From Lachnospiraceae bacterium UBA6987 (GTDB taxonomy: Bacteria; Bacillota; Clostridia; Lachnospirales; Lachnospiraceae): a DNA stretch of 64,000 bases. The position numbers and the translations under genes were made by a program. Position 1 is the first letter of the stretch; each line of letters begins with the position of its first letter. Shown piece by piece: positions 9,781 through 64,000 of the stretch. The DNA is taken from NCBI GenBank assembly GCA_002449955.1, contig DJYD01000046.1:1355-65354 (forward strand), in the 5' to 3' direction. The notes below the pieces were generated by a model. It made no database searches, was not told the origin of the DNA, and saw nothing but the letters and a program-made list of their open reading frames with translations.

Positions 9781-9798
9781 GGCGGGAAAATGACACGA

Positions 9799-9834: not shown

Positions 9835-9845
9835 CAGCAGGCGCC

Positions 9846-12824: not shown

Positions 12825-12864
12825 GGCTTGCTCCGTGCCTGATCACCCTCAGGCGGGGCGGTAT

Positions 12865-47624: not shown

Positions 47625-47645
47625 AAGGAAAAGCCTCGCATCCCT

Positions 47646-47674
47646 TTGCTTTTCTCCTGCGGCTATGGTATAGT
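47646..47674 (+). promoter_or_regulatory. Candidate sigma-A promoter of the suf operon
   Basis: TTGCTT (47646-51) - 17 nt - TATAGT (47669-74), 31 nt upstream of the sufC ATG. Bracketed by an 11-bp inverted repeat. Confidence 0.5.
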
Positions 47675-47704
47675 ATAGCTGGCTATAAGCCGCAGGAGGA
47701 TCAT

Positions 47705-48433
47705 ATGCTTGAACTGCAACACGTCTCCTACGAAGTGGAAGAGGATGGCGAAAAAAAACAAATCTTAAAAGATATCAATCTGACCATTGAGGATGGAACC
47801 TTCTTAGTCGTGACCGGCCCGAATGGCGGAGGGAAATCTTCTCTTGCCAAGGTTATTATGGGCGTTAATAAAGCTTCCGGAGGGAAAATTCTCCTTGACG
47901 GCGAAGATATTACAGACTTAGGGATCACAGAAAGAGCAGCGAAGGGGATCAGTTTTGCCTTCCAGACGCCGGTGACCTTCAAAGGGATACGTGTCGTTGA
48001 CCTGCTCAGGATGGCATGCGGAAAACAGATTTCCATCATGCAGGCCTGTGACTATCTTTCGCAGGTCGGCCTCTGCGCCAAGGATTACATTGAACGCGAG
48101 GTGAACGGATCGCTTTCCGGCGGTGAGCTGAAACGCATTGAGATCGCCACCGTGCTCGCTCGCGGAACCAAGCTGTCACTCTTCGATGAACCGGAGGCCG
48201 GAATCGATATCTGGAGTTTCCAGAATCTGATCCGGGTCTTTGAGACGGTGCGTGAGAATGTCAGCGGCTCCGTGATGATCATTTCCCACCAGGAACGGAT
48301 TCTCAGCATTGCGGATAAGATCGCGGTGATCGAGGACGGCTGTGTATCCCGCTTCGGAACCAGGGACGAGGTCCTGCCGAAGCTTCTCGGGACAGCTTCC
48401 GCGGTAAATGCGGCCTGCAGCAAGCTTGACTAA
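47705..48433 (+). CDS. sufC: Fe-S cluster assembly ATPase SufC
   Basis: 242 aa. Walker A GPNGGGKSS, signature LSGGELKR, Walker B LSLFDEPE and H-loop ISHQ. Followed by a SufB/D-family gene. Confidence 0.88.
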   Translation: MLELQHVSYEVEEDGEKKQILKDINLTIEDGTFLVVTGPNGGGKSSLAKVIMGVNKASGGKILLDGEDITDLGITERAAKGISFAFQTPVTFKGIRVVDLLRMACGKQISIMQACDYLSQVGLCAKDYIEREVNGSLSGGELKRIEIATVLARGTKLSLFDEPEAGIDIWSFQNLIRVFETVRENVSGSVMIISHQERILSIADKIAVIEDGCVSRFGTRDEVLPKLLGTASAVNAACSKLD

Positions 48434-48443
48434 GGAGGGAAAT

Positions 48444-49364
48444 ATGTTAGATGCGATCCAGAGACATTTGATTGAAGAAATAGCCGACCTGCATACGGTT
48501 CCCGAAGGCGCTTACAATATCCGTGCAAACGGCAAGCTTGACAGCCGCAGGACGACAGCCAATATCGATATCATCTCAAAGACAGATAAAAGCGGTATCG
48601 ACATCCGCATCAAGGACGGCACGAAGAAGGAATCCGTCCACATTCCGGTGGTTTTAAGTGAAAGCGGCCTGAAAGAGACGGTGTACAATGATTTTTATAT
48701 CGGCGAAGACTGCGATGTGGTCATCGTAGCCGGCTGCGGCATCGATAACTGCGGCGTACATGACTCGGAGCATGACGGCGTGCACCGTTTCTTTATCGGG
48801 AAGAACTCCCGGGTGAAATATGTCGAGAAGCATTACGGCCAGGGCGACGGGACAGGCAAGCGCATCCTGAACCCGGTCACCGAAGCCTATCTTGAGGAAG
48901 GCGCACATGCGGAATTCGAGATGGTCCAGATCAAGGGCGTGGATTCGACCGTCCGCACCAACATCGCAAAGCTCGCTGCCGGCGCTTCCTTCGTCGTTCA
49001 CGAAGCGCTCATGACGCACGGACAGCAGACCGCAAAGAGCGTATACACCGTGGATTTAGACGGGGAGGATTCCTCGGCTGACGTGGTTTCCCGCTCGGTT
49101 GCCAGAGACGACTCGGTGCAGGAGTTTGAAGCCTGCCTGGTCGGCAATACGCTATGCAAGGGCCACGCGGAATGCGACGCGATCATTATGGACCGGGCAA
49201 AGGTGACTTCGGTACCCAAGCTGGAAGCCAATTCGGTCGATGCGGCGCTCATCCACGAGGCGGCCATCGGGAAGATTGCCGGTGACCAGCTGATCAAGCT
49301 GATGACACTGGGCTTATCCGAAGAACAGGCGGAAGAGCAGATCATCAGCGGATTCCTCCGGTAA
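48444..49364 (+). CDS. SufB/SufD-family Fe-S assembly scaffold protein (short clostridial type)
   Basis: ATG 48444 follows AAGGAGG (the track ORF opens at 48408). 306 aa with the beta-helix SufBD core and C-terminal AAIGKI..DQLIKLMTLGLSEEQAEE..I.GFL, typical of SufB/D. Confidence 0.8.
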   Translation: MLDAIQRHLIEEIADLHTVPEGAYNIRANGKLDSRRTTANIDIISKTDKSGIDIRIKDGTKKESVHIPVVLSESGLKETVYNDFYIGEDCDVVIVAGCGIDNCGVHDSEHDGVHRFFIGKNSRVKYVEKHYGQGDGTGKRILNPVTEAYLEEGAHAEFEMVQIKGVDSTVRTNIAKLAAGASFVVHEALMTHGQQTAKSVYTVDLDGEDSSADVVSRSVARDDSVQEFEACLVGNTLCKGHAECDAIIMDRAKVTSVPKLEANSVDAALIHEAAIGKIAGDQLIKLMTLGLSEEQAEEQIISGFLR

Positions 49365-49370
49365 AGTGCT

Positions 49371-50750
49371 ATGAGCGGAGGCGGAGTGCAGACAAAATCT
49401 ATGGTTCAGGACCTGACGGAGGGGAGCATCACAAAGCTGCTCCTCCGTTTTGCGTTGCCTCTTCTTGCCGCCAATGCGCTTCAGGCGCTTTATAATTTGG
49501 TGGATATGGTTGTCGTAGGCCAGCATATCGGCGGCATGGGCATGTCTGCGGTATCTATCGGCGGCGACCTTCTGCATCTGATCACCTTCATCGCCATGGG
49601 CTTTTCCTCTGCGGGGCAGGTGCTGATCGCCCGTGATGTCGGAGCCGGACGCATGGATCAGGTAAAACGCATGATCGGCAATCTGTTCGTTTTTCTGTTT
49701 TCGGCGTCGGTCCTGATCGGAACGCTCTGTCTCATTTTCCGGCGTCAGATCCTGGAACTTGTCAATACACCGGATGAGGCTTTTGACGCCACCATGAGCT
49801 ATTTTGTCACCTGCGCGTTCGGCCTGGTCTTCATCTACGGCTACAACTGCGTCAGCGCCATCCTGCGCGGTATGGGGGACAGCAAAAGACCTTTCCTTTT
49901 TGTCGGGATAGCCGCGGTACTGAACACCGTCCTGGACATCCTTTTCGTCATCCCCTGCGGCATGGGCGTCTTCGGCGCGGCATTAGCGACGGTGATCGGC
50001 CAGGGAGCAAGCTTTGTGCTCTCCATCATCTATCTGTACCGTAAACGCGAAGCGTTCAGTTTTGATTTTAAGCCGGCCAGCTTCCGCCCGGACGCCCGAA
50101 CCATGGGCAGACTCGTCAGCCTCGGGATCCCCATGTCGATTCAGTCGATGGCTGTATCTTTTTCAAAAACTGTGCTAATGAGTTGGATTAATGGTGAAGG
50201 CTTGACATATTCAGCACTTGCAGGGATATACAATAAAACACATACGATATTCAGTATTGTTTATAATTCGTTTACTACAGCAGGTTCAGCTATGGTTGGA
50301 CAGAACCTGGGGGCAGAGAAAAATGATCGCGTTCCAATGATTTTGAAAACAATATTAGGCGTCGGTATAACTATAGCAACAGGGATAGCTCTTTTCATTC
50401 TTTCATTCAGTGAACCAATCTATAGACTTTTCACAGGGGATAATACTGTTTTGAAGGTAGCACACATCTTGACTGTTCCGATCATTATAAATTTGTACGG
50501 AGCTGCTACACGCTGTACAGGCTTCTCTCTCATAAATGGAAGTGGGAGATCTCGTCTTAATCTATTTGTGGCAATATTTGACGGCATGATTAGTCGGATC
50601 GGAATTGCAGCACTACTTTACTTTGTCTGGGACATGGGTGCACTCGGCTGCTGGTATGGTGATGCACTGGCAGGTTTCATGCCGATCATCATCGGAGGTG
50701 TTTTTTTCCTTAGTGGTAAATGGAAGGCTTTGCCACGGAATGAACAGTAG
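49371..50750 (+). CDS. MATE-family efflux transporter (compositionally chimeric)
   Basis: 459 aa, 12 hydrophobic helices, typical MATE start ..LTEGSITKLLLRFALPLLAANALQALYNLVDMVVVG. The start could instead be ATG 49401. GC drops sharply at about 50,160 within the ORF. Confidence 0.85.
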   Translation: MSGGGVQTKSMVQDLTEGSITKLLLRFALPLLAANALQALYNLVDMVVVGQHIGGMGMSAVSIGGDLLHLITFIAMGFSSAGQVLIARDVGAGRMDQVKRMIGNLFVFLFSASVLIGTLCLIFRRQILELVNTPDEAFDATMSYFVTCAFGLVFIYGYNCVSAILRGMGDSKRPFLFVGIAAVLNTVLDILFVIPCGMGVFGAALATVIGQGASFVLSIIYLYRKREAFSFDFKPASFRPDARTMGRLVSLGIPMSIQSMAVSFSKTVLMSWINGEGLTYSALAGIYNKTHTIFSIVYNSFTTAGSAMVGQNLGAEKNDRVPMILKTILGVGITIATGIALFILSFSEPIYRLFTGDNTVLKVAHILTVPIIINLYGAATRCTGFSLINGSGRSRLNLFVAIFDGMISRIGIAALLYFVWDMGALGCWYGDALAGFMPIIIGGVFFLSGKWKALPRNEQ

Positions 50751-50793
50751 ATAATCATCAGAAAACTTTGAATCACGCTTATAAGTAGATAGA

Positions 50794-50820
50794 GCACAAA
50801 AAAGGAGGCGTAAGCCTCCT
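50794..50820 (-). terminator. Intrinsic terminator of the gntR-family gene
   Basis: On the minus strand: AGGAGGC-ttac-GCCTCCT followed by TTTTTTGTG, 70 nt after the stop at 50891. Confidence 0.7.
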
Positions 50821-50890
50821 GAACAATATGGGTATCAGTGAAAGCAATAGGACTATGCTCGTAACTATTTTGTGGCAATTCCGATGTTAG

Positions 50891-51562
50891 TTAATCTTGT
50901 ATTCCAAAAAAAGAACCATTTTCACGTTGACTTAGGATATCTGCACGTGCAAGGGTGAGGTGCTGGCTAACCATTTCCATAGCACCTTTCCCGTCTCGCT
51001 GCTCAAGTTTTTCTACAATATGATAATGCTCGGGCATACTCTGTTCAATACGCGAATGCAGATTAGTGGTCAGATAACGTATTCGTTGTTGCTGATCATT
51101 AATCCGATCCATCCAATTTTTGAGGACCTCATTGCCAGAGAGTTCAATGAGCTTATTATGGAAATTTAAATCTGACTGAAAGTATTGATTAAAATTATGA
51201 TTGTCATAGTTTTTCTGCATCTCATCAACAATGGTTCTCATTTCCTGAAGCTGTGAGACAGAGACAGTTTCTGCAACAGTTTGTGCGGCTAACATTTCAA
51301 TTGCTTTTCTGGCGTCATAAATATCAGATATCAGCTTCCAAGTAATTGGTTTCACTCGAAATTTTCTTCCATCGGCATCTTCTAAAAGGCCCTCGTCTCG
51401 TAGACGAACCAATGCTTCTCGCACGGGGGTACGACTAAAACCATACTTCTCAGAAAGATGCTGAACAATTAAAATTTGACCAGGCATATACTGAAGAGAT
51501 ACTATTTTATCTTTGAGTAATGCATATACTTCGTTTGTCTTAGGATCTTTTGTTTCAACCAT
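50891..51562 (-). CDS. GntR-family (FadR/FCD subfamily) transcriptional regulator
   Basis: Winged-helix motif LSEKYGFSRTPVREALVRLRDEGLL plus an all-helical FCD-like C-terminal domain. The start is set at ATG 51562 (MVETKD), 7 nt after GGGAGG. The track ORF opens at 51607. Confidence 0.88.
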   Translation of the reverse strand: MVETKDPKTNEVYALLKDKIVSLQYMPGQILIVQHLSEKYGFSRTPVREALVRLRDEGLLEDADGRKFRVKPITWKLISDIYDARKAIEMLAAQTVAETVSVSQLQEMRTIVDEMQKNYDNHNFNQYFQSDLNFHNKLIELSGNEVLKNWMDRINDQQQRIRYLTTNLHSRIEQSMPEHYHIVEKLEQRDGKGAMEMVSQHLTLARADILSQRENGSFFGIQD

Positions 51563-51747
51563 TTCAAGTCCTCCCACATCCACGGTATACGTTGTATAGT
51601 ATAGCAAACGTTTTGCGATAAGTGCAATGGATTGTTTTTTGTTTTCGATAGATTTTTGATGCTTTCTCTATAATTGTTCCACTTGTAAGGCACAATGCTA
51701 TTTGATCCAATAAACCTTGATTAGGAATATAAAAGAAAGTTATAAAT

Positions 51748-51814
51748 TTGTCAATAAAAAAATGTATGCAAATTTAAATTTGATATTGCAAAACAATTGT
51801 TGTGGTGCTATAGT
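51748..51814 (+). promoter_or_regulatory. Promoter/operator module A (copy of module B at 62479..62545)
   Basis: TTGCAA (51786-91) - 17 nt - TGcTATAGT (extended -10, 51809-14). A perfect 14-bp palindrome CAAATTTAAATTTG (51769-82) abuts the -35. 57/67 positions are identical, ungapped, to 62479..62545. Confidence 0.65.
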
Positions 51815-52013
51815 AAAAAACGTAAACAGTTATTGAGCTGAAAAAGCATGGATCTTGCCGCGTATGAAGTCGTTACTTGCTGGTGCAAGCGATATGGCGG
51901 TCGAAGGACAAAGATGATAGTCTCAGCTAGAATGAGGAATACCAATATCGAGTCATATTAATACAGTTTTAACTGTTTATTAAAAATGAGCATGTAAGGA
52001 GGAACAATCGAGA

Positions 52014-52673
52014 GTGAATAAGAAGGTGGTTATCTTTCACACAACTTTTGGAACTGTCTCGCCGGTTGAAAAGGCTTTTAAAAGACATTTTCCGGAAGTC
52101 CAGTTGATTTCGTTGGCTGAAGATGGTGTTCTGCCTGAGGTAATTGCCAATAACGGAGTACCGACTCCTGCAATCATAAAGCGATTGATTGGATATGCTG
52201 GAATGGCACAGGAAGTGGGAGCATCGGTATTTGTATGTGTCTGCACTACTCTTGGTATGGCGATGCGGGATGCGCAGAAAGCGCTTTCTATCCCTTTGGT
52301 CATGATTGACGCTGCAATGTTGCGCAAGGCGGTGACACTTGGTAACCGTATAGCATTGTTGATTACTTTTCCTCCTACTGAACGCGCATCGCTGGCTGCC
52401 GCAAAGGAGTTCGCAAAAGAAGCAGGTCGAGAAAATGTTTTGATTGACATTATCACGGTAGAAGGTGCTCGCGAAGCAATGATGCAAGGCGATTTGGCAA
52501 CGCATGACCGATTAATTGCCGAAACCGCCCATAAAGCCGCGCTGGATCATGATGTTATTGCCTTTGCACAGGTCAGCATGTTAGACGCGGCCAATCTTTG
52601 TAGGGATTTGAAAGTTCCGATTTTGACAAGTCTGGAAGATGGTATCAAGCAGTTGGAGGAATATTTGGCATGA
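52014..52673 (+). CDS. Asp/Glu/hydantoin-racemase-superfamily protein
   Basis: 219 aa, GTG start 11 nt after AGGAGG. Two-lobed pattern with VFVCVCTTLG (Cys-containing loop) and a second-lobe VIAFAQVSM. The family call is from general resemblance only. Confidence 0.6.
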   Translation: MNKKVVIFHTTFGTVSPVEKAFKRHFPEVQLISLAEDGVLPEVIANNGVPTPAIIKRLIGYAGMAQEVGASVFVCVCTTLGMAMRDAQKALSIPLVMIDAAMLRKAVTLGNRIALLITFPPTERASLAAAKEFAKEAGRENVLIDIITVEGAREAMMQGDLATHDRLIAETAHKAALDHDVIAFAQVSMLDAANLCRDLKVPILTSLEDGIKQLEEYLA

Positions 52674-53869
52674 GTAGGAAAAAAGACCTGACGGTGACAA
52701 AGGTTGAGGCAATGGTGCTGAGGTATCAGTATGAAAAGGGAATTGCCGATGCACAAAACTTCTTTTCTGCACGTAGTGCTGTGATCGTACAGGTACATAC
52801 TGCTTGCGGGATAACTGGGATCGGAGAATCTGCGTCCTTTGGAGGTCCTGCAGAAACCACGAAGTATATCATTGAACATGAGCTTGCTCCTATTGTTATC
52901 GGAGAAGATGCATCATCAGTCAGTCGGATTTGGCAAAAAATGTTTGACCGGACAAGGCAACATGGACGCAGTGGTGTAATTATGGCAGCCATGAGCGGAA
53001 TTGATATCGCACTGTGGGACGTTGTGGGAAAGCATGCGGACTTGCCTGTTTATAAACTTTTCGGTGGCTATACAGACAAAGTGGTTCCTTATGCTAGCTC
53101 GGGGTTCTATTCTCCTGGTAAAACTGCATCAGATATCGCCGAGGAATGCCGCAGCTACTTCAAACGTGGATTCAAATATGCAAAAATTAAAATTGGACGC
53201 AACCCAGAGATGCTCTTGACGCCTTTGCACAATATGGCTTATGCGGAAGAATGCCAGTATTCTGTGGAAGAGGATTTGGCCCGAGTAGAAGCGTGCTGCA
53301 ATGTGGCAAAAGAATACGGCGCCCGGATCATGGTGGATGCCAACAACACACTGACCACATACAGCGCGATTCAGATCGGAAAGAAGCTGGAAGAACTAAA
53401 TGTCTTCTGGTTTGAAGAGCCGGTTCATGTTGACAATATAAATGGATCTGCAGAGGTTGCCGATGCCCTGTCTATGCCGGTCTCTGGATATGAATCAGAA
53501 ATTGGAGCTTACCGTTTCCGAGAGTTAATTGATCGCAAGGCAGTGGACATTGTTCAGCCTGATGTAATATGGAGCGGCGGCTTTACGGAATGCAAACGAA
53601 TTGCAAGCTATGCAGCCATGCATAATTTACCGTGTAATCCACATGTTTTCTCATCTGGAATCAGCCTGGCAGCCAATTTGCATTTTCTTGCGTCGCTTTC
53701 TAATGGAGGACTGCTTGAAATGGATCAGAATTATTATCCGCTCCGGGACGATCTGTTAACGCAAAAGATCGATATTGCAGAAGACGGATTCGTATATGTT
53801 CCTCAGGGACCCGGATTAGGTGTGGAGCTGAACCCGGATACAGTCGCCAAATATTTGGTTAACTCATAA
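52670..53869 (+). CDS. Enolase-superfamily enzyme, mandelate-racemase subgroup (probable acid-sugar dehydratase)
   Basis: 399 aa. ATGA overlap with the upstream stop. KxK (YAKIKIG), metal ligands D (MVDANN), E (WFEEP) and E (GYESE), and the D...H dyad (IVQPDV, CNPHVF). AMSGIDIALWDVVGK is typical of the MR/MLE N-terminal domain. Confidence 0.85.
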   Translation: MSRKKDLTVTKVEAMVLRYQYEKGIADAQNFFSARSAVIVQVHTACGITGIGESASFGGPAETTKYIIEHELAPIVIGEDASSVSRIWQKMFDRTRQHGRSGVIMAAMSGIDIALWDVVGKHADLPVYKLFGGYTDKVVPYASSGFYSPGKTASDIAEECRSYFKRGFKYAKIKIGRNPEMLLTPLHNMAYAEECQYSVEEDLARVEACCNVAKEYGARIMVDANNTLTTYSAIQIGKKLEELNVFWFEEPVHVDNINGSAEVADALSMPVSGYESEIGAYRFRELIDRKAVDIVQPDVIWSGGFTECKRIASYAAMHNLPCNPHVFSSGISLAANLHFLASLSNGGLLEMDQNYYPLRDDLLTQKIDIAEDGFVYVPQGPGLGVELNPDTVAKYLVNS

Positions 53870-53924
53870 TGTGCATTAAAATATTACTCATAAATGAACT
53901 TAAATGAAGGAGGAAATGTAAAAA

Positions 53925-54944
53925 ATGATTATGAGAACACTTGGCAGAACAGGTATGTCTGTATCTGCATTAGGACTTGGTGGTTTTCAGTTTACTGCTC
54001 AATTTGGTGTATCGCCTCAGGAGGCGGATAATATTATTGATTATGCTGTCGATCATGGGATCAATCTCATTGACACTGCGCAGATTTATGGTGCAGGCGA
54101 AGGTGAAGCCATAATTGGCCGTGCATTGGAACGTCATAAAAACAATAAACCCTATATTTGCGCAAAAGTCGGGCATTTTGAGCATGCTGGCATTCTTGCC
54201 TTCAATCATGACAAAGCGATGCAGGCTTATCAGGATCCTGATGAAATTATGCGGACGCTTAAGCATTCGTTGTGGCTTCTTCGTGAAGATCATTTCGATA
54301 TTATGATGATTCATGAAATCGAGAGGGAATGGAAAGTGAATTTCCCCTCCGGTGACTGTGTCGTCCTTGAAGTTCTGGAAGACCTGAAAAAACAAGGTGT
54401 AGTGAAAGCAATCGGAGCATCTTCATGGGATAGCGTAACCCTCTCGAAGATGATCCGTACCGACCGTATCGATGTGGTATTAATTGCTGGAGGCATTAGT
54501 TTGCTGACAAGGGGAATGTTTGATGAACTGGTGCCTGCAGCCAAAGAACATAATGTTGGAGTTATTGTTGGAGGAATATTAGGCCAGAATACTCCTGGCT
54601 TGGTTGTTAAAAACCGTGATGCCCTTATTCCGTTTAAAGAATCTGATGATACGAAACTGAATGTTTTAGCACATAAGCTGGAAGGCCTCTATGACCTTGC
54701 GGACGAATTAGATCTCAGCATGGTACAGCTTGCGGAAAGATATGCGCTTTCGTTCCCTGATATCCATTCTGTGACTATGGGAGCAAGAGAAGTTGCCCAT
54801 GTCATGGATAATATCCGTTCTGCCGAAATGGGACCGTTACCGGAAGATGCAATTACAAGAATCAATCAGATTCAGGATGCAGGCGATACATTTGATTTCA
54901 GCACAATCGTCCATAAGAGAATGGAAAACCTGGTCAACAAATAA
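53925..54944 (+). CDS. Aldo/keto reductase
   Basis: 339 aa. LGRTGMSVSALGLGG start and catalytic D/Y (IDTAQIYG), K (CAKVG) and H (MMIHE) positions. Confidence 0.88.
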   Translation: MIMRTLGRTGMSVSALGLGGFQFTAQFGVSPQEADNIIDYAVDHGINLIDTAQIYGAGEGEAIIGRALERHKNNKPYICAKVGHFEHAGILAFNHDKAMQAYQDPDEIMRTLKHSLWLLREDHFDIMMIHEIEREWKVNFPSGDCVVLEVLEDLKKQGVVKAIGASSWDSVTLSKMIRTDRIDVVLIAGGISLLTRGMFDELVPAAKEHNVGVIVGGILGQNTPGLVVKNRDALIPFKESDDTKLNVLAHKLEGLYDLADELDLSMVQLAERYALSFPDIHSVTMGAREVAHVMDNIRSAEMGPLPEDAITRINQIQDAGDTFDFSTIVHKRMENLVNK

Positions 54945-54968
54945 GACAGAAGAGAAAGGAAAGTTACT

Positions 54969-55607
54969 ATGAGTGTGAAAACCATTCCAAACGGTCAGCC
55001 GTTTTTTACCATTCGCTACATTGAAAATGAAAAGGATTATCGAATTGAACCCTTTAGCATTCTGATTAATATGGCGATTGAATCTAAAGCGAATATTATG
55101 ATTGACAATATTCCCCAAGCGCCTCTGCACGGAGCAATTGTCGGAAATATTACAATTCCGGAAATTGAGAAGGCTATCCTTATTGAGGACTATGCAAAAT
55201 ATACGAAGGAACCTGATTTCTTCGATAAGGTAAAGGAAACATGGCCTCGCATGTATACGATCCGGCCGGAAGAGCGCTTCCGTGATGCGCAAATGTATGT
55301 GGCACAAGGTGATGCACATATCACACCGCATATTGAACTTGGCGTGTGTTGCGTTATGGGCGCGAACTATTCAACCGGTCTACACAAAACACATCCCAGA
55401 AATATCGATGAATATCATGTGCAGATTGCGGGTATTGGCAAAATGCAGAAGTTTTATGAAAATGATGTCAATACAATGTATCAGGACATTTATATGGCTC
55501 CTGGTATTGTACATGAAACAATCTTTGATGCAAATGGAGTTTATCCGTGGCATCAGTATAAAACTGTAACTGACGTTGTTTTTATGGGCATTAAGATTGA
55601 TCGGTGA
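54969..55607 (+). CDS. Hypothetical protein, possibly cupin-fold
   Basis: 212 aa. His/Glu cluster GLHKTHPRNIDEYHVQIAG followed by APGIVHE resembles the two cupin motifs. GAAAGGAAAG SD-like run upstream. Confidence 0.5.
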   Translation: MSVKTIPNGQPFFTIRYIENEKDYRIEPFSILINMAIESKANIMIDNIPQAPLHGAIVGNITIPEIEKAILIEDYAKYTKEPDFFDKVKETWPRMYTIRPEERFRDAQMYVAQGDAHITPHIELGVCCVMGANYSTGLHKTHPRNIDEYHVQIAGIGKMQKFYENDVNTMYQDIYMAPGIVHETIFDANGVYPWHQYKTVTDVVFMGIKIDR

Positions 55608-55677
55608 GTATCCCTGCATGAGTGCAGGTTCCTCAATTAATACACAAAGCCAACAAAAAACGAAAGGAAAAATCAAA

Positions 55678-56724
55678 ATGAAAAAGACAGTAGCACTTGT
55701 CCTCTCCGCCATTATGTGCCTGACACTCTTCGCAGGCTGCGGCAAGGAAACGCCCTCATCCACTCCTGCAGCAAGTCAGGGATCTGAAGCTCCGACGACA
55801 ACGAAAGCACCATCTGCTGACAAGCTTACCCTTAAGCTTGACTCGGGCTTTACGGCTGGCACAGTGTTGGCTGAGATCCCGCAGGAAATTATTAAGCGGG
55901 TGACGGAAGCCTCCAATGGAACCATCGAAATCCAGGATTTTCCTCAGGATGCTCTGGGAACATCGCCTGAACGTGCACCTATGCTAATGGCGGGTGAACT
56001 TGATATTTCGGTTCATGCCTTGTCAGTCTTTGACCAGTACAATCCGAAGCAGACGATCTTAAATGCATTCTTTATGTTTGAAAGCTGGGATCATTACAAG
56101 GCCTGCCAGGAAACGGATATTTATAAGGGTATCATTTCCGATCTTGAAAAAGCTATCCATGCCACCGTGGTATCTGACGTGTACCTTGGCAGACGCAACA
56201 TGCTCTCCAAGAAGCCGATTGAATCCTTGGAAAGCCTTAAGGGTATGAAGTTCCGCGTTCCCAATGAACCGATGCCGATTGCTGCAATTAAAGCCCTTGG
56301 TGCTGCTGCTACACCTATTGTTGGACCTGAAGTCTATACTGCATTGCAGAATGGCACTGCTGAGGCCACAGAAAGCCCTGCTGCTGAAATTGTGAATCGT
56401 GCATTCTATGAAATTTGTAATTACCTGACCTTTACTGCTCACCAGTATCAGACATACTGCTTCTTCATCTCTGATGCTGCAAAAGCCCGTATGACGGAAG
56501 ATCAGTACAATTTGATTACAAAAGTCATTAAAGAAGTCTGTGATGAGTACACCGTCAAGCAGCAGGCCTCTGAAGCTGAAGCCGAGAAGTTCCTTCGTGA
56601 GAAGTGCACCTGCTTCGATATCGACCTGACTGAAATGCGCAATGCCGTACAGTCCATCTACGATGATTATGATGATGTTTGGGGTGATGGCGCATGGGAA
56701 GCCTTTAAAGCTCTTGCCAAATAA
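55678..56724 (+). CDS. TRAP transporter solute-binding lipoprotein (DctP family)
   Basis: ATG 55678 gives MKKTVALVLSAIMCLTLFAGCG (lipobox). The track ORF opens at 55576. DctP-like blocks (LKGMKFRVPN, ALQNGTAEATESP). Followed by the Q and M subunits. Confidence 0.88.
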   Translation: MKKTVALVLSAIMCLTLFAGCGKETPSSTPAASQGSEAPTTTKAPSADKLTLKLDSGFTAGTVLAEIPQEIIKRVTEASNGTIEIQDFPQDALGTSPERAPMLMAGELDISVHALSVFDQYNPKQTILNAFFMFESWDHYKACQETDIYKGIISDLEKAIHATVVSDVYLGRRNMLSKKPIESLESLKGMKFRVPNEPMPIAAIKALGAAATPIVGPEVYTALQNGTAEATESPAAEIVNRAFYEICNYLTFTAHQYQTYCFFISDAAKARMTEDQYNLITKVIKEVCDEYTVKQQASEAEAEKFLREKCTCFDIDLTEMRNAVQSIYDDYDDVWGDGAWEAFKALAK

Positions 56725-56813
56725 ATTATTTGGTTCTGAGCCTGCGGCGGCAGTGGTAACTGCTGCCGCCGCAGATTTTCTACCAAGCAACTCATTTGCC
56801 AGGAGGTATTAAT

Positions 56814-57368
56814 ATGATGTTAGACAAGTTTCGCCGGTTTGCGAAGCGATGGGAACAAATCGAGCTTTCGATATTAACGACTCTTTTTGCAATCGCTTTT
56901 GTTGTTATCATTATGCAGATCGTGAGCCGGTATATATTTAATAAACCGATCATTTGGACCGATGAATTCTCCTCGGCGTTACAGATGTTCATCGCTTTTT
57001 TGGCAATCGGCTATGGTGTTCTTTCAAAAAAACATATCAGAACCGGAGGCTTTATGGGAAAAGCTCCCAAAGCGGTTAAACACATTATTGCGATCCTCTC
57101 GGATATTCTTTTTATTTTTGTATGCTATAAACTGCTTACCACAACTATTCCGTTTGTGCGTTCTGAATGGAATATTCCGTTTGGAACGTTTCCGCTAGGA
57201 AGAGGCAAAATGTTCATTGCTGTTCCGATCGGTTACGGTACATCGATTATTTACTTATTGATGGAAATTATTGAGCATATACTTGAATGGATCTCTGAGC
57301 AAAAGGTAAAAAGTATAGCAAAAGATCCTGATTCATCCGAAGCGGGAGGTGCAAGTACATGTCACTAA
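56814..57368 (+). CDS. TRAP transporter small permease (DctQ family)
   Basis: 184 aa from ATG 56814 (AGGAGG 7 nt upstream). Four hydrophobic helices. Sits between the P and M subunits. Confidence 0.85.
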   Translation: MMLDKFRRFAKRWEQIELSILTTLFAIAFVVIIMQIVSRYIFNKPIIWTDEFSSALQMFIAFLAIGYGVLSKKHIRTGGFMGKAPKAVKHIIAILSDILFIFVCYKLLTTTIPFVRSEWNIPFGTFPLGRGKMFIAVPIGYGTSIIYLLMEIIEHILEWISEQKVKSIAKDPDSSEAGGASTCH

Positions 57369-58642
57369 ATATAATTTGGTTATTTGTCATGCTGTTTGGC
57401 ATGATGGCCTTGGATATTCCGGTTGCCACTTCAATGCTGGTATCTGCTGTTGTATATATGTTGGCCTTTGATATTCCTATGCTGAGTGCCACAATACAAT
57501 CCATCTGGAGTCCAATGTCTTCTATTCTTCTTTCAACCGGCTTTTTCATCCTGGCAGGAAATCTGATGAATAATGGCGGTGTGACAAAGCGTATTTTTAA
57601 CTTTGCCAATACGTTAGTTGGCTGGGTGCCTGGTGGGTTAGGTCATGCCAATGTAGTGGCAAGTGTTATTTTTGCCGGCATGAGCGGTACTGCCGTTGGT
57701 GATGCGGGTGGCCTCGGACAGATAGAAGTCAATGCTATGACAGACAATGGCTATGATCTTGACTTCTCACTTGCTGTCACCGGCGCCTCGTCGATTCTTG
57801 GACCGATTATCCCGCCTAGCGTCCCTATGGTTATGTATGCGCTGGTTGCTGGCGCTTCGATCGGCAAAATGTTTATGGCAGGTATTATTCCGGGATTGAT
57901 TTCAGCCGCAGGAATGATGGGCCTTGTTTATTATTTTGCAAAAAAGAGAAATTATACCAAACTGAAATTTCCGACAGGAAAAGAGTTTTGGCAAAGCTTC
58001 CGATATGCTTTCTTCCCGCTGCTTGCTCCGATCATTATACTTGTCTCCATCTATAGCGGTGTAATCACTCCGTCTGAATCCGCGGTTATTGCAGCTGTTT
58101 ACGCTATGGTTATTGGTGTCCTCAGCAAAGACCTTAGTATTAAGGCAATTCCCGGGATTTTTAAAGAATCGTTCCAGCTGTTCGGTTCCATTCTGTATAT
58201 ATTTGTTGCTTCAAAATTTTTCGGCTTTGTGGTTGCCTATGAGCAAGTGCCCAATTATCTGGCAAAGTTTGTTGTAGATAATATCGGGGATAGTCCGGCT
58301 CTGTTTTTCCTCTGCGTGATCGTTATCCTGCTTATTTGCGGGTGCATTATGGACAATAATGCGACCATTCTTATTATTACACCGGTATTAGCTCCTGTGG
58401 CGGCATCCCTAGGAATTGATCCTATTCACTTTGGCTTGGTCTTTATTTTCACCATGATGATCGGCGTTGTAACTCCGCCAGTTGGTATCATTCTTTTTGT
58501 GCTGCAGGGCATGTCTGGTATCTCATTTGGCAAACTGTGTCGGGCTATCGCACCGTTTATCATTATGCTGATTGCATGTGCATTGTTGTTTGCTCTGGTA
58601 CCTGCACTGAGCACCTGGCTTCCGAATCTTCTCTTCGGGTGA
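57359..58642 (+). CDS. TRAP transporter large permease (DctM family)
   Basis: 427 aa, about 12 helices. 10-nt overlap with the dctQ-like gene. Typical DctM blocks (FAGMSGTAVGDAGGLG, ILFVLQG). Confidence 0.9.
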   Translation: MSLNIIWLFVMLFGMMALDIPVATSMLVSAVVYMLAFDIPMLSATIQSIWSPMSSILLSTGFFILAGNLMNNGGVTKRIFNFANTLVGWVPGGLGHANVVASVIFAGMSGTAVGDAGGLGQIEVNAMTDNGYDLDFSLAVTGASSILGPIIPPSVPMVMYALVAGASIGKMFMAGIIPGLISAAGMMGLVYYFAKKRNYTKLKFPTGKEFWQSFRYAFFPLLAPIIILVSIYSGVITPSESAVIAAVYAMVIGVLSKDLSIKAIPGIFKESFQLFGSILYIFVASKFFGFVVAYEQVPNYLAKFVVDNIGDSPALFFLCVIVILLICGCIMDNNATILIITPVLAPVAASLGIDPIHFGLVFIFTMMIGVVTPPVGIILFVLQGMSGISFGKLCRAIAPFIIMLIACALLFALVPALSTWLPNLLFG

Positions 58643-58693
58643 CGAAGAAAGAATTGGCGAATACAAATAATTAATAAAGAGAGGTTGACGTAT

Positions 58694-59443
58694 ATGGAAC
58701 AGATTCAAAAAGAGACGGCAATAATAAGAGAACTTGAAAAGTATTCTACTTCCACAATAGCAATTTGCATGCAAAGAGGCAAAGACTACCAAAAACGTGC
58801 ACAACTGTTTGATTCCCGCAAGGACAAATGGTATACAGACGCTTCTTTGCGTGTACAATCCCCTGAATTCGGTCCACGTGCCGGATATGCTGTAACCATG
58901 CGTGTTGGTTTGCCGGTTGAAGGATATGTGCCGCCGACTCGTGCGGAATTGCTGAAACTGATCGATGCATCACCCAAGCCGGTAGTTCTGGTCATGCAGG
59001 TGGATGAACCGGAAGCGATGCGCCTGTCTGACAGTAACTTTGGCGGTCAGTTCGGTTATCTGTGCAAGCAACTAGGGATGGAATCTCTGGTCAGTGACGG
59101 CGCGATCCGTGATATAAAGGAACTGCAGGATTTTGGTATACAGCTTATGATTCCCGGGTCTATCGCGGCAACAGCACCGTCTGTTATCTATGAACTGAAC
59201 GGAACGGTTAATGTAGCCGGCATGGAAGTGTCTGCTGGCGACATTGTTCATATGGATCTCGACGGCGCGGTGAAAATGCCCAGAGAAGCGGCTGAACAAG
59301 TGCTGGCTTGTGCTAAAGTGCTGGAAGAAGAAGAAAAAGCCAGTTATGAGCGTATTGATAAAGCACAAACTCTGGATGACTACCTGCAAGTCTTTTATGA
59401 CATGGGATATGGCCTTAACAAGAAAAAGGATGATGAGCAATAA
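58694..59443 (+). CDS. RraA/HMG-CHA-aldolase-family protein, paralog 1
   Basis: 249 aa from ATG 58694 (GAGAGG upstream). RraA-fold blocks GGQFGYLC..LGMESLVSDGAIRD and AGMEVSAGDIVHMDLDGAV (the GD..v.D.DG motif). Confidence 0.75.
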   Translation: MEQIQKETAIIRELEKYSTSTIAICMQRGKDYQKRAQLFDSRKDKWYTDASLRVQSPEFGPRAGYAVTMRVGLPVEGYVPPTRAELLKLIDASPKPVVLVMQVDEPEAMRLSDSNFGGQFGYLCKQLGMESLVSDGAIRDIKELQDFGIQLMIPGSIAATAPSVIYELNGTVNVAGMEVSAGDIVHMDLDGAVKMPREAAEQVLACAKVLEEEEKASYERIDKAQTLDDYLQVFYDMGYGLNKKKDDEQ

Positions 59444-59491
59444 GGGGAATTGACGAGAATCTATTCGTTGTTACCGGAAAGGATTGTTCAA

Positions 59492-60226
59492 ATGGAAATG
59501 ATTCAAAAAGAGAACGCGGTGATCAGAGAACTGGAAAAATACTCGTCTCATGTTATAGCGAACTGTGTGCAAAAGGGAAACGGAGGCGCAGAGCTGTTTG
59601 ATGTTTTTAAGGATAAATGGTTTACGGATGCCTCATTAAAGGTACAGTTTCCGGAGTTCGGTTCCCGTGCCGGCTATGCGGTAACCATGCGTGTCGGACT
59701 GCCGGTGGAAGGGTATATACCGCCGACCCGTGCCGAATTGTTAAAGCTCATTGACGCTTCTCCTAAGCCGGTGGTTCTGGTGATGCAGGTCGATGAACCG
59801 GAAGCAATGCGGCTTTCTGATAGTAATTTCGGCGGTCAGTTTGGCTATTTATGTCAAAAGCTTGGGATGGAATCTCTGATTTGCGATGGGGCTATCCGTG
59901 ATATAAAAGAGCTGCATGATTTTGGCATACAGCTTATGATTCCCGGATCAATTGCGGCAACAGCACCCTCTGTCATCTATGAACTGAACGGAACGGTTAC
60001 CGTTGGTGGCATGGAGGTTTCCGCCGGTGATGTCGTGTTTATGGATCAGGACGGTGCCTTGAAAATCCAGGCGAAATCAGTGGAGAAAGTTCTGGCCTGT
60101 GCGAAAAAGACAAAAGCTGGGAACATTGATCCGAACAAAAAGTTAACATTGGATGAGTGCCTGAAAATCTTCAGCGCAATGGGGGCACATTCTGAACCGG
60201 ATGAGGAAAACAGCGAACAGCCGTAA
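59492..60226 (+). CDS. RraA/HMG-CHA-aldolase-family protein, paralog 2
   Basis: 244 aa from ATG 59492 (MEMIQKE, parallel to MEQIQKE of paralog 1). The core of 122 residues differs from paralog 1 at only 8 positions. N- and C-terminal tails are divergent. Confidence 0.75.
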   Translation: MEMIQKENAVIRELEKYSSHVIANCVQKGNGGAELFDVFKDKWFTDASLKVQFPEFGSRAGYAVTMRVGLPVEGYIPPTRAELLKLIDASPKPVVLVMQVDEPEAMRLSDSNFGGQFGYLCQKLGMESLICDGAIRDIKELHDFGIQLMIPGSIAATAPSVIYELNGTVTVGGMEVSAGDVVFMDQDGALKIQAKSVEKVLACAKKTKAGNIDPNKKLTLDECLKIFSAMGAHSEPDEENSEQP

Positions 60227-60245
60227 AATGCAGGAGCAATGAAAA

Positions 60246-61079
60246 ATGAAATACAAATTTGCGTTATTAGCTAAGGACATGCATAATTCCGTGCTGCCTC
60301 GCACTTATGATTTCTATGGTAAAAGCCTGGGATATGAAGTTGATTTCAATATCATAAACGTTAATGAAAACGAACTTGCTGAAACTTTGGAAAAGATGAG
60401 ATCAGAGCTTGATGGCTTTACGGTTACAATGCCATATAAAGTTAAAATCATGGAGTTCTGCGATGAATTGGATGTTTCGGCTGAAAAATGCGGATCATCC
60501 AATACGGTATTAGTGAAAGACGGCAAGTTCATTGGCTATAATACCGATGGCTGGGGAATGGTTAAATGTCTTGCGCTGAAAGGATACAGTTTTGAGGGCA
60601 AGAATGTCGTTTTGGTTGGCGCAGGAGGCGTAGCACTGTCCATTGCCTACAATCTTTCCATCAATAAGGTAAAGCATGTGGATGTGCTCAATAAGTTTCC
60701 GAACGAAACAGAGCGTCTCCTGGCCCGCATGGATGACCGTTTTACCGGGTATGACCTGACAGATGAAAATCTGAATAAATGTTGCAAAGGTGCGGATTGC
60801 TTCATTAATGCAAGCATTTTGGGACAGGTGGGCTTTGATGATTGGACGAATCTGGACTTTCTTAAAGCGCTTAATGCTGACGCACTGGTCTATGATGTCA
60901 ACTATTCTAAACCGGGGGCTAATCTTCCCCGAGCAGCTGAAGAACTTGGATTCAGACACTATGTTGGCAAGGCGATGAGCGCCTGTCAGGGGATTCGCGC
61001 GATGGAAATCTGGACAGGAACGGCACCGAGCGATGAAACAGCGCGGGAGTTAGTGGAGCTTATCGAAAATAATCGTTAA
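60246..61079 (+). CDS. Shikimate/quinate dehydrogenase-family oxidoreductase
   Basis: 277 aa. Catalytic TMPYK Lys and YNTDG Asp motifs, and Rossmann GAGGVA. Confidence 0.82.
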   Translation: MKYKFALLAKDMHNSVLPRTYDFYGKSLGYEVDFNIINVNENELAETLEKMRSELDGFTVTMPYKVKIMEFCDELDVSAEKCGSSNTVLVKDGKFIGYNTDGWGMVKCLALKGYSFEGKNVVLVGAGGVALSIAYNLSINKVKHVDVLNKFPNETERLLARMDDRFTGYDLTDENLNKCCKGADCFINASILGQVGFDDWTNLDFLKALNADALVYDVNYSKPGANLPRAAEELGFRHYVGKAMSACQGIRAMEIWTGTAPSDETARELVELIENNR

Positions 61080-61095
61080 CGAGAAGCAATTAAAT

Positions 61096-61131
61096 GGGCG
61101 CGTTGCACAATGAATAGTTGGCAACGCGCCC
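61096..61131. terminator. Bidirectional terminator between convergent genes
   Basis: 11-bp GC-rich inverted repeat GGGCGCGTTGC ... GCAACGCGCCC followed by TTATGTATTT. Lies between the stops at 61079 (+) and 61155 (-). Confidence 0.7.
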
Positions 61132-61154
61132 TTATGTATTTATGAAAAGCATAA

Positions 61155-62384
61155 CTAAAACTTATGAACGCATCTCATTTCTTTGCCCTCTTTTTTGATC
61201 AGGGCAGTGCAACCTCCGCAGGTGGCACACGGCTTTTGGATTTTTCGGCCGCATAATATTTCGTTGGCAAAGCCTGGATCTGCAACCCATTGCCGCCCAA
61301 AACCGGCCAGATCGAACCAATTGTCTGAGATTCCACCTGCAGCGACATTCGCGGCAAAGTCACGCAGCCAGGTAAAGCCGGAAGCGACAACGAGGAGTTC
61401 AGGATACTGTGTTTTGACTTCTTTTGCGGATTGTAGCAGACGTTCTACTCCTTCCAAGGGATGCTCATTAGGAACAGGCCCGCCCATGTCGTAAGGCCGA
61501 ATCATATAAGGCGTTACGGCCCCTATTCCGGCACTGATGTTTAATATGGAAACGCCAAGTGCACGGAGTTCTCCAATCAACCGAAGAGGTTCTGTCATAT
61601 CCTGTACCAACTCTTTGCCGGGACGACACCCCCAACCATAGGGGTAGGGCATCCCGTCGAAAACATTGAGCCGTACGGCAACAGTGATATTACTTTGTTC
61701 ACGGATGCGGCGTACAATATCCTTTACTAACCGGGTTCTGTTTTCATAGGAACCGCCATATTTCCCGGAGCGGTTATAGGCAGAGAATAATTCATTTAGA
61801 AGATAGCCATGACAGCAACGGATGTCAATGGCATCAAAACCGGCGCGCTCTGCAAGAAGAGCGGTTTTTACATAATCGTCGGCCAGTCTGTCTAACGCTT
61901 CGTCGTTGATGATATAACTGTTTTCTTTAGGGATCAAAGGATTTTCAATGGCACATGCAACGCTTTTACTGTATCGGCCGGAATGAGTGAGCTGGGCAAC
62001 AATAAAAGGATTCTCGTGTTCGTGGATAGTGGTTACAAACTGTGCAAATTGTTCTGTGTTTTCCTCAGAGAGACGCATTTGCCGGTTATTAGATTTGCCT
62101 TCATCGTTCACTGAGATTGATTCCATCCAGATGGTACCGACGCCGCCATCAGCTAATGATTGGTAGCGTTCAAATGCCCTTTGAGAAGGACTGCCGTCTT
62201 CATTGGAATCAAAGCCTTCTATAGGTTGAGCAAGCAGACGGTTTCGGATTGTCTTACCATTCACTGAGAGGGGAGTGGATAGCACAGAGGTTTCCTTCGA
62301 AAAGGGGAGGCCTTGCGACAGTTGACCGGCATCTGCTAAAAAATCATTCACGGAAGAGTATGCGTAACGTTGGTGTTTCATCAT
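61155..62384 (-). CDS. Old-yellow-enzyme-family flavin oxidoreductase ending in a CX2CX2CX12C cluster motif
   Basis: 409 aa. OYE TIM-barrel blocks (AQLTHSGR, DAIDIRCCHGYLLNELFS). The C-terminus is KPCATCGGCTALIKKEGKEMRCVHKF*. Confidence 0.82.
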   Translation of the reverse strand: MMKHQRYAYSSVNDFLADAGQLSQGLPFSKETSVLSTPLSVNGKTIRNRLLAQPIEGFDSNEDGSPSQRAFERYQSLADGGVGTIWMESISVNDEGKSNNRQMRLSEENTEQFAQFVTTIHEHENPFIVAQLTHSGRYSKSVACAIENPLIPKENSYIINDEALDRLADDYVKTALLAERAGFDAIDIRCCHGYLLNELFSAYNRSGKYGGSYENRTRLVKDIVRRIREQSNITVAVRLNVFDGMPYPYGWGCRPGKELVQDMTEPLRLIGELRALGVSILNISAGIGAVTPYMIRPYDMGGPVPNEHPLEGVERLLQSAKEVKTQYPELLVVASGFTWLRDFAANVAAGGISDNWFDLAGFGRQWVADPGFANEILCGRKIQKPCATCGGCTALIKKEGKEMRCVHKF

Positions 62385-62478
62385 TGGTTACCGTCCTTGA
62401 TGATGTTGTTTTTAAAGTAAGTCAAATAAGCTGTGAAACGTCAAGTCTATGTATTTAGTCTATGACAAAAAATAAAAA

Positions 62479-62545
62479 TTGTCAATATAAAAATGTATGC
62501 AATTTTAAATTAGATATTGCAAAAAATGAGGTGCAGTGCTATAGT
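62479..62545 (+). promoter_or_regulatory. Promoter/operator module B (copy of module A)
   Basis: TTGCAA (62517-22) - 17 nt - TGcTATAGT (62540-45). Inverted repeat TGCAAT-N12-ATTGCA overlaps the -35. 61 nt upstream of kdgK and divergent from the OYE gene. Confidence 0.65.
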
Positions 62546-62606
62546 GAGAATAACAAATCAACGCTGATCTGCGGATAAACTGTTTAAGGAAAGGAAGGTT
62601 CTATTT

Positions 62607-63629
62607 ATGGGAAAATTGGTATGCTTTGGCGAAATCATGGGGCGCTTTAGCCCGCCTGGTTATTTGAAAACGATTCAGACCAACAGTTTTCAGCTCTCCT
62701 TTGCCGGCGGCGAGGCAAATGTAGCAGTATCCGTTGCCAACTATGGCGGAGATGTTAAATTTGTGACTAAACTTCCGGATAATGATCTATCCCGCAGATG
62801 CATTCGCATACTTCGCGGTTACCGTGTGAATACAGATGATGTTATTTTCGGGGGCGACCGCATGGGGATTTACTTTGTGGAAAAAGGAGCTTCGCAGCGC
62901 CCTTCCAAGATTATTTACGACCGCAAGTATTCCGCAATTTCCCAAGCGGATCCCTCAGAATTCGATTGGGATAAGATTTTTGAAGGTGCAGAATGGTTCC
63001 ATTTTACCGGAATCACCCCTGCTCTTTCTGAAAACATGGTGTGCGCGTGCCGTGACGCGGTAAAAGCAGCCAAGAAAAAAGGTATTACAATCTCCTGTGA
63101 TTTAAATTATCGCAAGAATCTTTGGAGTTCAAAGCGTGCTGGCGAGGTCATGAGTGAATTGATGCCGTATGTGGATGTCTGTATTGCCAATGAAGAAGAT
63201 GCGGAAAAGGTTTTCGGAATCAAGGCGAGTAATACAGATGTGACGTCTGGTACACTTAACGAAGAAGGTTACCGGGAGGTGGCGGACCAACTAATTCAGC
63301 GGTTTGGTGTAAAAAAAGTGGCGATTACGTTGCGTGGAAGCATCTCGGCCAGCGATAACATGTGGTCGGGCATACTGTATGACGGAAAACAGTTCTATCA
63401 TTCCAGGGAATATAAAATCCACTTAGTAGACCGCGTTGGCGGCGGTGATTCTTTCGGCGGTGGCCTTATTTATTCTCTTATGAGAGGCGATGATGACAAG
63501 ACTGCGATTGAATTTGCTGTTGCCGCTTCCTGTCTGAAGCAGGCGACGGAATTTGATTTCAGTGAATCATCTGTGAGTGATGTTGAACTTTTAATGAACG
63601 GTGACGCATCCGGCAGAGTGCGCCGTTAA
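62607..63629 (+). CDS. kdgK: 2-dehydro-3-deoxygluconokinase (PfkB family)
   Basis: 340 aa. N-terminal GEIMGRF...FAGGEANVAVSVA, C-terminal DRVGGGDSFGGGLIY anion hole. Followed directly by the KDPG aldolase gene. Confidence 0.85.
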   Translation: MGKLVCFGEIMGRFSPPGYLKTIQTNSFQLSFAGGEANVAVSVANYGGDVKFVTKLPDNDLSRRCIRILRGYRVNTDDVIFGGDRMGIYFVEKGASQRPSKIIYDRKYSAISQADPSEFDWDKIFEGAEWFHFTGITPALSENMVCACRDAVKAAKKKGITISCDLNYRKNLWSSKRAGEVMSELMPYVDVCIANEEDAEKVFGIKASNTDVTSGTLNEEGYREVADQLIQRFGVKKVAITLRGSISASDNMWSGILYDGKQFYHSREYKIHLVDRVGGGDSFGGGLIYSLMRGDDDKTAIEFAVAASCLKQATEFDFSESSVSDVELLMNGDASGRVRR

Positions 63630-63683
63630 GTAAGTTGGCACGTTAAAAGCTGAAAAAACTCTGCGTGAAAAGAAAGGAATAAT

Positions 63684-64000
63684 ATGACGAGAGAAACCAT
63701 TATTCAGAGAGTTTACGAAGAAAAAGTCATTGCAATAGTGCGGGGGATTGAGAGTGATGCTCTTCTTAAGCTTGCAGACGCACTTTACGAAGGGAATATC
63801 TCAATGATGGAAATAACTTTTGACCAGGCGCGCCCTGAAACATGGGAGAGCACTGCGGCCTCGATCGCTTTCCTACGGGAAAAAGTGGGAGATCATATGG
63901 CGATCGGCGCAGGCACGGTCACATCTCCACATCTTGTGGAACTGGCGATTAAAGCTGGTGCTGAATTTATTATTTCACCGGATACACAAAAGGAGGTCAT
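63684..64000 (+). CDS. eda: 2-dehydro-3-deoxyphosphogluconate (KDPG) / KHG aldolase, truncated by the window end
   Basis: My own translation from ATG 63684 (GAAAGGAA upstream) gives MTRETIIQRVYEEKVIAIVRGIE...MMEITFD...IGAGTVTSP...AEFIISPD. These are the typical Eda blocks. No stop before the window ends. Confidence 0.85.
   Translation, partial: MTRETIIQRVYEEKVIAIVRGIESDALLKLADALYEGNISMMEITFDQARPETWESTAASIAFLREKVGDHMAIGAGTVTSPHLVELAIKAGAEFIISPDTQKEV

Follow-up and report, generated by a model that had tools for sequence, protein, structure and literature searches.

A duplicated bidirectional control cassette with a GntR/FadR-type box in a catabolic gene island of a Lachnospiraceae bacterium

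In Escherichia coli, dgoRKADT places the GntR/FCD regulator DgoR beside an MR_MLE-type sugar-acid dehydratase, a 2-keto-3-deoxy-acid kinase, a KDPG-type aldolase, and a transporter. The DgoR operators are TTGTA-N-TACAA-like inverted repeats at an inducible promoter, and the system is autoregulated and released by its substrate. The island analyzed here has a similar composition, as its GntR/FCD gene lies beside genes for an MR_MLE enzyme, a KdgK-type kinase, Eda, and a transporter. Another FCD-type repressor of E. coli, NanR, recognizes the (GGTATA)3 operator, in which closely spaced GTATA units are bound cooperatively by several dimers; this cooperativity needs a 32-residue N-terminal extension (PMC8012715). 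For operators of the FadR subfamily, the rule NyGTM-N0-1-KACNy has been described (Suvorova et al. 2015, PMC4494728).

The island and its GntR/FCD regulator

The window, i.e., the whole 64,000-nt stretch that we analyzed, corresponds to positions 1355-65354 of contig C20 in a 2.13-Mb genome (72 contigs, 93% complete), and the features of the island are listed in Table 1. An earlier reading made from the sequence alone (hereafter, the sequence-only reading) had described two similar control regions, copy A between gntR and the TRAP operon and copy B between the OYE gene and kdgK-eda. The gene context of copy B was confirmed. That of copy A also stands, except that the operon opens with Asp/Glu-racemase-like, MR_MLE, and aldo-keto reductase genes and an unknown gene; the TRAP genes begin 3.8 kb downstream of copy A. 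The last gene of this plus-strand operon is shikimate-dehydrogenase-like (SDH-like).

Table 1. Coordinates of the control cassettes, predicted promoters, boxes, and genes (window positions).
Feature	Coordinates	Strand	Remarks
Copy A of the 67-bp control cassette	51748..51814		between gntR (-) and racemase-like/MR_MLE/TRAP operon (+)
Copy B of the cassette	62479..62545		between OYE gene (-) and kdgK-eda (+)
Predicted P(+), copy A, TTGCAA-17-TATAGT, TG at 51806-51807	51786..51814	+	consensus scan
Predicted P(-), copy A, TTGACA-17-TATATT, towards gntR	51726..51754	-	consensus scan, 11/12 matches
Predicted P(+), copy B, TTGCAA-17-TATAGT with TG, into kdgK-eda	62517..62545	+	scan
Predicted P(-), copy B, TTGACA-17-TAGACT, into OYE gene	62457..62485	-	scan
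GntR/FadR-type box AAATGTATGCAA, copy A	51760..51771	+	19.3 bits, tied rank 1-2
GntR/FadR-type box AAATGTATGCAA, copy B	62491..62502	+	19.3 bits, tied rank 1-2
Dyad TGCAAA-N12-ATTGCA, copy A	51767..51790		copy B: 62498-62521
gntR, GntR wHTH + FCD, 223 aa	50891..51562	-	Pfam GntR and FCD domains
Proximal gntR promoter candidate TTGCAC-18-TATACT with TG	51598..51627	-	by inspection; below scan thresholds
Operon: racemase-like, MR_MLE, AKR, unknown (212 aa), DctPQM, two RraA-like, SDH-like	52014..61079	+	
OYE-family flavoenzyme gene	61155..62384	-	putatively driven by copy B P(-)
kdgK (PfkB kinase, KDG-kinase-like) and start of eda	62607..64000	+	putatively driven by copy B P(+)

The predicted regulator combines a GntR wHTH domain (PF00392, E = 1.2e-17, residues 24-85 of the long ORF) with an FCD domain, a C-terminal all-helical effector domain (PF07729, E = 1.2e-28). 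Because its homologues are 223 aa long, we take ATG 51562 as the true start rather than TTG 51607, the start of the listed ORF; the latter codon sits within the promoter-like sequence TGCTATACT. Four residues, D131, H135, H179, and H201, are invariant in 27 orthologues; we take these to be the FCD metal ligands. Downstream of the -10 element of the proximal gntR promoter candidate lies CAACGTATACCG, with a GTATAC core; this palindrome scored <6 bits with the box matrix described below, and we do not claim it as an operator.

For comparison, we fetched ten distinct orthologous loci from a large protein collection, in which the regulator orthologues have 48-69% identity to the window protein; a further locus, L112 (ena:ERZ1029114 k87_29740105, 1-13417), was reached via an OYE protein search. 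The wHTH segments SRTPVREA and RKFR (the wing) show almost no variation, whether among the orthologues or when the L112 paralogue is compared. In all ten orthologous loci, the regulator gene lies beside OYE, SDH-like, and MR_MLE genes and one or two racemase-like genes; most loci add a glyoxalase-fold gene, kdgK, and eda, and many have a gene pair for a sensor kinase and an AraC-type response regulator together with an ABC transporter where the window has TRAP. Most relatives (L016, L018, L101, L103, L106, and L109) combine the enzyme cluster with a Peripla_BP_6-type ABC transporter and a two-component system, whereas the window (55576-58642) and L112 have a TRAP transporter instead, which amounts to a swap of transporter and regulator around the same enzymes.

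Using TBLASTN analysis, we found the OYE, kdgK, MR_MLE, SDH, racemase-like, and eda orthologues of this genome only in the island, and the kinase, the AraC-type regulator, the glyoxalase, and the ABC binding protein of the orthologous clusters were absent from this genome. Since the kinase/AraC-type pair is absent, the GntR/FCD protein is the only cluster-specific regulator kept here. A search of 40 relatives identified no orthologue of the regulator in the 18 genomes of the same genus, and the island is therefore accessory. A protein search of genome contigs with the GntR sequence for relatives found nothing, and an alignment-based contig search gave, among the matches listed, only generic GntR proteins with ≤35% identity.

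The duplicated cassette and its promoters

In an ungapped, position-by-position comparison, copies A and B are identical at 57 of 67 positions, and the 60 nt flanking each side of the copies are unrelated; our recount bears out the figures of the sequence-only reading. The identical features that it had named (TTGTCAATA, AATGTATGCA, and TTGCAA-17-TATAGT with TG before the -10) are all present, as are the perfect palindrome CAAATTTAAATTTG at 51769-51782, which occurs in copy A only, and TGCAA(A/T)-N12-ATTGCA, which occurs in both copies. The identity between the copies is mosaic. Over the left 46 nt (TTGTCAATA ... TTGCAAAA), 43 positions are identical and 3 are mismatched, whereas the 13 nt of promoter spacer 3' of the plus-strand -35 hexamer have 6 identities and 7 mismatches (3/46 vs 7/13 mismatches, Fisher p = 4e-4). 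The conserved 46-nt block spans exactly the distance from one -35 hexamer to the opposite one, and GTGCTATAGT is identical at 10/10 positions.

Copy A aligned by BLAST against its own 2.13-Mb genome matched only itself and copy B (E = 9.5e-16), and regex and mismatch-tolerant searches of the same genome identified no third copy. The 30-nt core of the cassette, with ≤3 mismatches allowed, was not found in 400 sampled genomes of the same order, and the cassette as an exact degenerate pattern had no match in JGI metagenome contigs. The sequence-only reading had allowed for a widespread repeat unrelated to these operons; with two genomic copies and none in the 400 genomes or the JGI contigs, the cassette is not a dispersed repeat and does not look like a mobile element (MITE/REP-like). 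The cassette is a real module, with a similarity far beyond chance.

Based on the promoter scan, each copy consists of two divergent sigma-70/SigA-type promoters, predicted with -35 hexamers 31 nt apart. The four sites match the sigma-70 consensus at 9-11 of 12 positions with 17-nt spacers, within the 16-18 nt of this promoter class, and two of them have TG before the -10. The scan confirmed the P(+) sites and the divergent control regions of the sequence-only reading, which had missed the P(-) promoters; TTGTCAATA, read on the minus strand, contains a perfect TTGACA -35 hexamer. The P(+) -35 and extended -10 elements are identical between the copies, and the spacer between them has diverged. 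In L112, the P(+) of copy B is kept as TTGCAA-17-TATATT with TG, and TGTCAAT of its P(-) is also conserved.

The predicted transcription start of copy A P(+) is at ~51821, which gives a leader of ~190 nt; the other three promoters would start near 51719 (-), 62552 (+), and 62450 (-). Nothing points to a known riboswitch or structured RNA leader after copy A, as no Rfam match was found at E ≤ 1 in 46000-64000 and the leader (51821-52016) has no significant structure (fold z = +0.52). At the predicted 5' end of the leader, GTAAACAGTTA (51822-51832) pairs perfectly with TAACTGTTTAT (51969-51979), just 5' of the ribosome-binding site; this pairing closes the entire leader in the MFE fold, the overall stability of which is not above that of shuffled sequences. 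The scan also identified an additional promoter-like sequence, AGGACA-17-TAGAAT, within the leader at 51905-51933, nearer the first gene of the operon.

The 12-nt box in related loci and the origin of the duplication

Among non-trivial 8-mers in the intergenic DNA of the orthologous loci, AAAATGTA is the most widely shared (9 of 10 loci), and in context it forms the box AAATGTAT(A/G/T)CA(A/T). The orthologue consensus, TGTATACA, fits the FadR-subfamily rule. The window counterpart, AAATGTATGCAA, had been listed in the sequence-only reading only among the identical features of the two copies; it is the element that is conserved across species. AAATGTATGCAA is a one-mismatch variant of AAATGTATACAA/T, which matches the FadR-subfamily consensus GTM-N0-1-KAC; the window boxes read TGTATGCA, with one departure from NyGTM-N0-1-KACNy, in the AC dinucleotide of the right half (GC instead). 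The window variant itself, AAATGTATGCA, is present without change in L018 and L103. In each cassette, the box falls in the interval between the -35 hexamers without touching either of them; 5 nt separate it from the minus-strand hexamer and 14 nt from the plus-strand one.

A first iterative motif refinement drifted into AT-rich noise and was discarded; the weight matrix that we used has 12 columns and was derived from the 18 clearest sites, all from other loci with the window excluded. These training sites were picked after the window sequence had been seen. The matrix scan of 4.27 million genome positions ranked the two window boxes first and second, tied at 19.3 bits. The next-best genome match scored 17.8 bits and lies in coding DNA, and no other site inside the window scored above 12.6 bits. 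A weaker box-like sequence, AAATATATACAA (15.8 bits), occurs outside the window at G000:C20:65798 (approximately window coordinate 64444), directly 3' of the eda terminator hairpin and 5' of a 266-aa ORF; it also occurs in L111 at ~899.

A GntR-type box was found beside the orthologous clusters at all 10 other loci and in L112. Across the orthologous loci, boxes are positioned just 5' of the OYE ribosome-binding site, in the glyoxalase-gntR gap, upstream of gntR, in the promoter region of the kinase operon, and before the gene for the binding protein (transporter). A second unit is often present 12 nt downstream, most clearly in L108, L101, L018, and L015, and several loci have two to three boxes at this 12-nt spacing. 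The 12-nt units adjoining the window boxes score poorly, and cooperative spreading onto the -35 hexamer is therefore a conjecture here. In a full-text literature search that combined TGTATACA with GntR, no published regulon with this box came up.

Four loci (L016 6132-6337, L018 2952-3237, L101 2667-3080, and L105 1606-1811) share a second conserved upstream element, (A/G)CAATT-N7-8-CTATTGAC(A/T)TT, at the promoter of the pfkB/OYE operon. It could be bound by the AraC-type response regulator, for which the window's genome has no counterpart.

L112 contains the same island from the racemase-like gene through eda, TRAP included, with 76% nucleotide identity to window positions 51996-64000. Its region between the OYE gene and kdgK aligns with copy B across both promoters; the box at this position is degenerate (TAATGCATATAT, 8.9 bits). 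Upstream of the racemase-like operon, L112 has a control region with a canonical box (AAGTGTATACAT, 14.4 bits, or 16.0 bits on the other strand); apart from the box, this region does not resemble copy A. Across L112, copy A matches the copy-B region best (74% over 69 nt) rather than the region upstream of the racemase-like gene. Because the OYE-kdgK region of L112 aligns with copy B and copy A also has its best match there, copy B is ancestral, and the left 46 nt of copy A are a paralogous copy, placed before the second operon in this lineage as the regulator gene and its flank were replaced. The L112 regulator is only 36% identical to that of the window, and its gene has the opposite orientation (co-directional) and is followed by a terminator; we conclude from these differences that one of the two lineages exchanged its regulator gene together with the flanking DNA. 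The spacer of copy A (CAATTG ... CTATAGTAAA) resembles the A-type core promoter of L112 (CAATTGCTATAAAGTAAA), which suggests a chimeric copy A as a second possible cause of the mosaic identity. As both control regions of L112 are box-like without being copies of one another, the comparison supports an old regulon link.

In L014, a 94%-identical relative, gntR and the racemase-like gene differ from those of the window by 8-9% mismatches, mostly at third codon positions. The 451-nt gntR-racemase intergenic region has 4 mismatches, with none in 51477-51713. The near-clean tract (51477-52057, 4 mismatches in all) comprises the whole intergenic region and ~130 nt of flanking coding DNA; it could be due to recent recombination or to unusually strong constraint or selection. 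Since recombination is equally able to explain it, we did not count this tract as evidence of constraint.

Regulatory model, alternatives, and relation to described systems

We consider it fairly likely, from the sequence comparisons above, that the GntR/FCD protein binds the box in each bidirectional cassette and represses four transcription units as one regulon. In each cassette, transcription would be initiated divergently at two sigma-70/SigA-type promoters whose -35 hexamers are 31 nt apart, and the adjacent GntR/FCD protein, as a dimer, would most likely bind AAATGTATGCAA in the AT-rich stretch between them, possibly with an auxiliary contact at the half-box-like GATATTGCAA, which contains the plus-strand -35. 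Binding would shut gntR, the racemase-like/MR_MLE/TRAP/RraA/SDH operon, the OYE gene, and kdgK-eda, probably by occlusion, with both RNA polymerases losing their upstream and -35 contacts, and a pathway intermediate bound in the FCD domain would release the protein. We infer the identity of the binder, its repressing action, and its induction by a metabolite. The sequence-only reading had likewise assigned both parts of the island to one regulon under the adjacent GntR/FCD regulator, and this protein is still the best candidate: the GntR-type box recurs at 10 loci and in L112, and the matrix ranks the window boxes at the top of the genome. All 12 box-carrying loci share just one regulator, a GntR/FCD protein with the same recognition helix, and a global factor is disfavored as the binder because there are no other high-scoring sites genome-wide.

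The operator proposed in the sequence-only reading was a different one, namely the TGCAA(A/T)-N12-ATTGCA dyad or the AT palindrome, at which GntR or another dimeric factor would block sigma region 4 directly. Both copies carry the dyad, and its overlap with the -35 is the classical position for a repressor; furthermore, GATATTGCAAAAAA is conserved at 14/14 positions between copy B and its L112 counterpart, beyond what a bare -35 hexamer needs. However, TGCAA-N10-16-TTGCA was found at 0 of 10 orthologous loci, the AT palindrome was absent from the same ten loci and is perfect in copy A only, and the spacing of the dyad arms is lost in the L112 counterpart of copy B, where it is off by 4 nt. The left arm of the dyad is merely the right half of the conserved box and the right arm is the -35 itself, and TGCA is self-complementary, so such dyads arise easily; this operator is therefore unlikely. 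GATATTGCAAAAAA resembles the right half-box plus one T and may be an auxiliary half-site; because the L112 box is weak and GATATTGCAAAAAA is fully conserved, the constrained element at the copy-B promoter may differ from the box. A bound GntR protein might instead act as an activator or dual regulator of one or both promoters. Relative to the predicted starts of P(+) and P(-), the box centers lie at approximately -55 and -46, respectively, beyond each -35 hexamer; such an upstream placement is more typical of activators than of repressors, and some FadR-subfamily proteins do activate, e.g., E. coli FadR at fabA. Set against this, catabolic FCD regulators with adjacent targets are usually repressors, and the window promoters are already near consensus (perfect TTGACA; extended -10 TGCTATAGT), which favors repression by occlusion. 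The L101 promoter TTGAAA-16-TATAAT with TG, on the kinase strand, has the box within its spacer, and a perfect TATAAT comes 4-6 nt after the box in L018 and L103; a repressor would suit such positions, and we regard activation as improbable. The promoter scan of the orthologous loci confirmed L101 only; the L018 and L103 sites, with -35 hexamers below the scan threshold, were identified by inspection, and the spacing of box, 5 nt, and -35 that recurs in L016 and L015 was likewise seen by eye, below thresholds.

Two further readings would detach the duplication from the adjacent regulator. If the box were the site of a different factor, GntR would act at another site, such as the GTATAC palindrome that follows the proximal gntR promoter, and CAACGTATACCG does lie 3' of the proximal gntR -10 element; yet that palindrome scores <6 bits, only the two island sites score high genome-wide, and no regulator other than GntR/FCD is shared by the box-carrying loci, so that we give this reading little credence. 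The similarity might also be a mere scar, left when segmental copying or gene conversion delivered a promoter, with no shared regulation beyond a similar promoter strength. In keeping with this, copy A is paralogous to copy B in this lineage only and has been combined with another core promoter, and the gntR-racemase intergenic region looks recently exchanged or unusually conserved relative to L014. However, the copied piece holds the top-scoring GntR-type box of the genome, and the two L112 control regions are box-like without being mutual copies, which makes a mere scar very unlikely. Most likely, then, box and regulon are new, but the circuit is of the standard local GntR/FCD type. More tentatively, AAATGTATACA(A/T), often in 12-nt tandem, is possibly the operator of an undescribed FCD clade for an uncharacterized OYE/SDH-like/racemase-like/MR_MLE/KdgK-Eda pathway, widespread among Clostridia of gut and rumen, the regulon of which, in this lineage, would have been rewired by cassette copying in front of a second operon during a regulator swap. 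If so, this regulon grew by cassette duplication and not by the birth of a site through point mutations.

These results provide a candidate operator and regulator for a conserved catabolic cluster of OYE, SDH-like, Asp/Glu-racemase-like, and MR_MLE enzymes, RraA-like aldolases, and KdgK/Eda that occurs in uncultured gut and rumen Firmicutes. The box lets the regulon be predicted in related metagenome-assembled genomes, and the FCD protein could serve as bait for the inducer and hence the substrate. Copies A and B exemplify the reuse of a ready-made bidirectional control region; mechanistically, the arrangement would be that of a standard local repressor, and the cassette duplication is a modest evolutionary curiosity.

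Despite its likeness to the dgo island, the locus differs from the DgoR system in having two separate bidirectional cassettes instead of one promoter, a box between the -35 hexamers instead of over the core promoter, and an enzyme set of OYE, SDH-like, racemase-like, and RraA-like proteins. The window GntR protein has low identity to characterized FCD proteins, with best PDB matches at E ~1e-20. The orthologous loci with two to three boxes at 12-nt spacing resemble NanR operators; however, the window protein has ~10 residues before its wHTH, only one unit scores well in the window, and the NCBIfam NanR model gives 71 bits against a cut-off of 260. Among FadR-subfamily operators, such as those of Bacillus subtilis GntR and of UxuR/ExuR (PMC4494728), the orthologue consensus AAATGTATACAT fits as a NyGT-M-K-ACNy palindrome with AT-rich flanks, whereas the window boxes have GC for AC in the right half.
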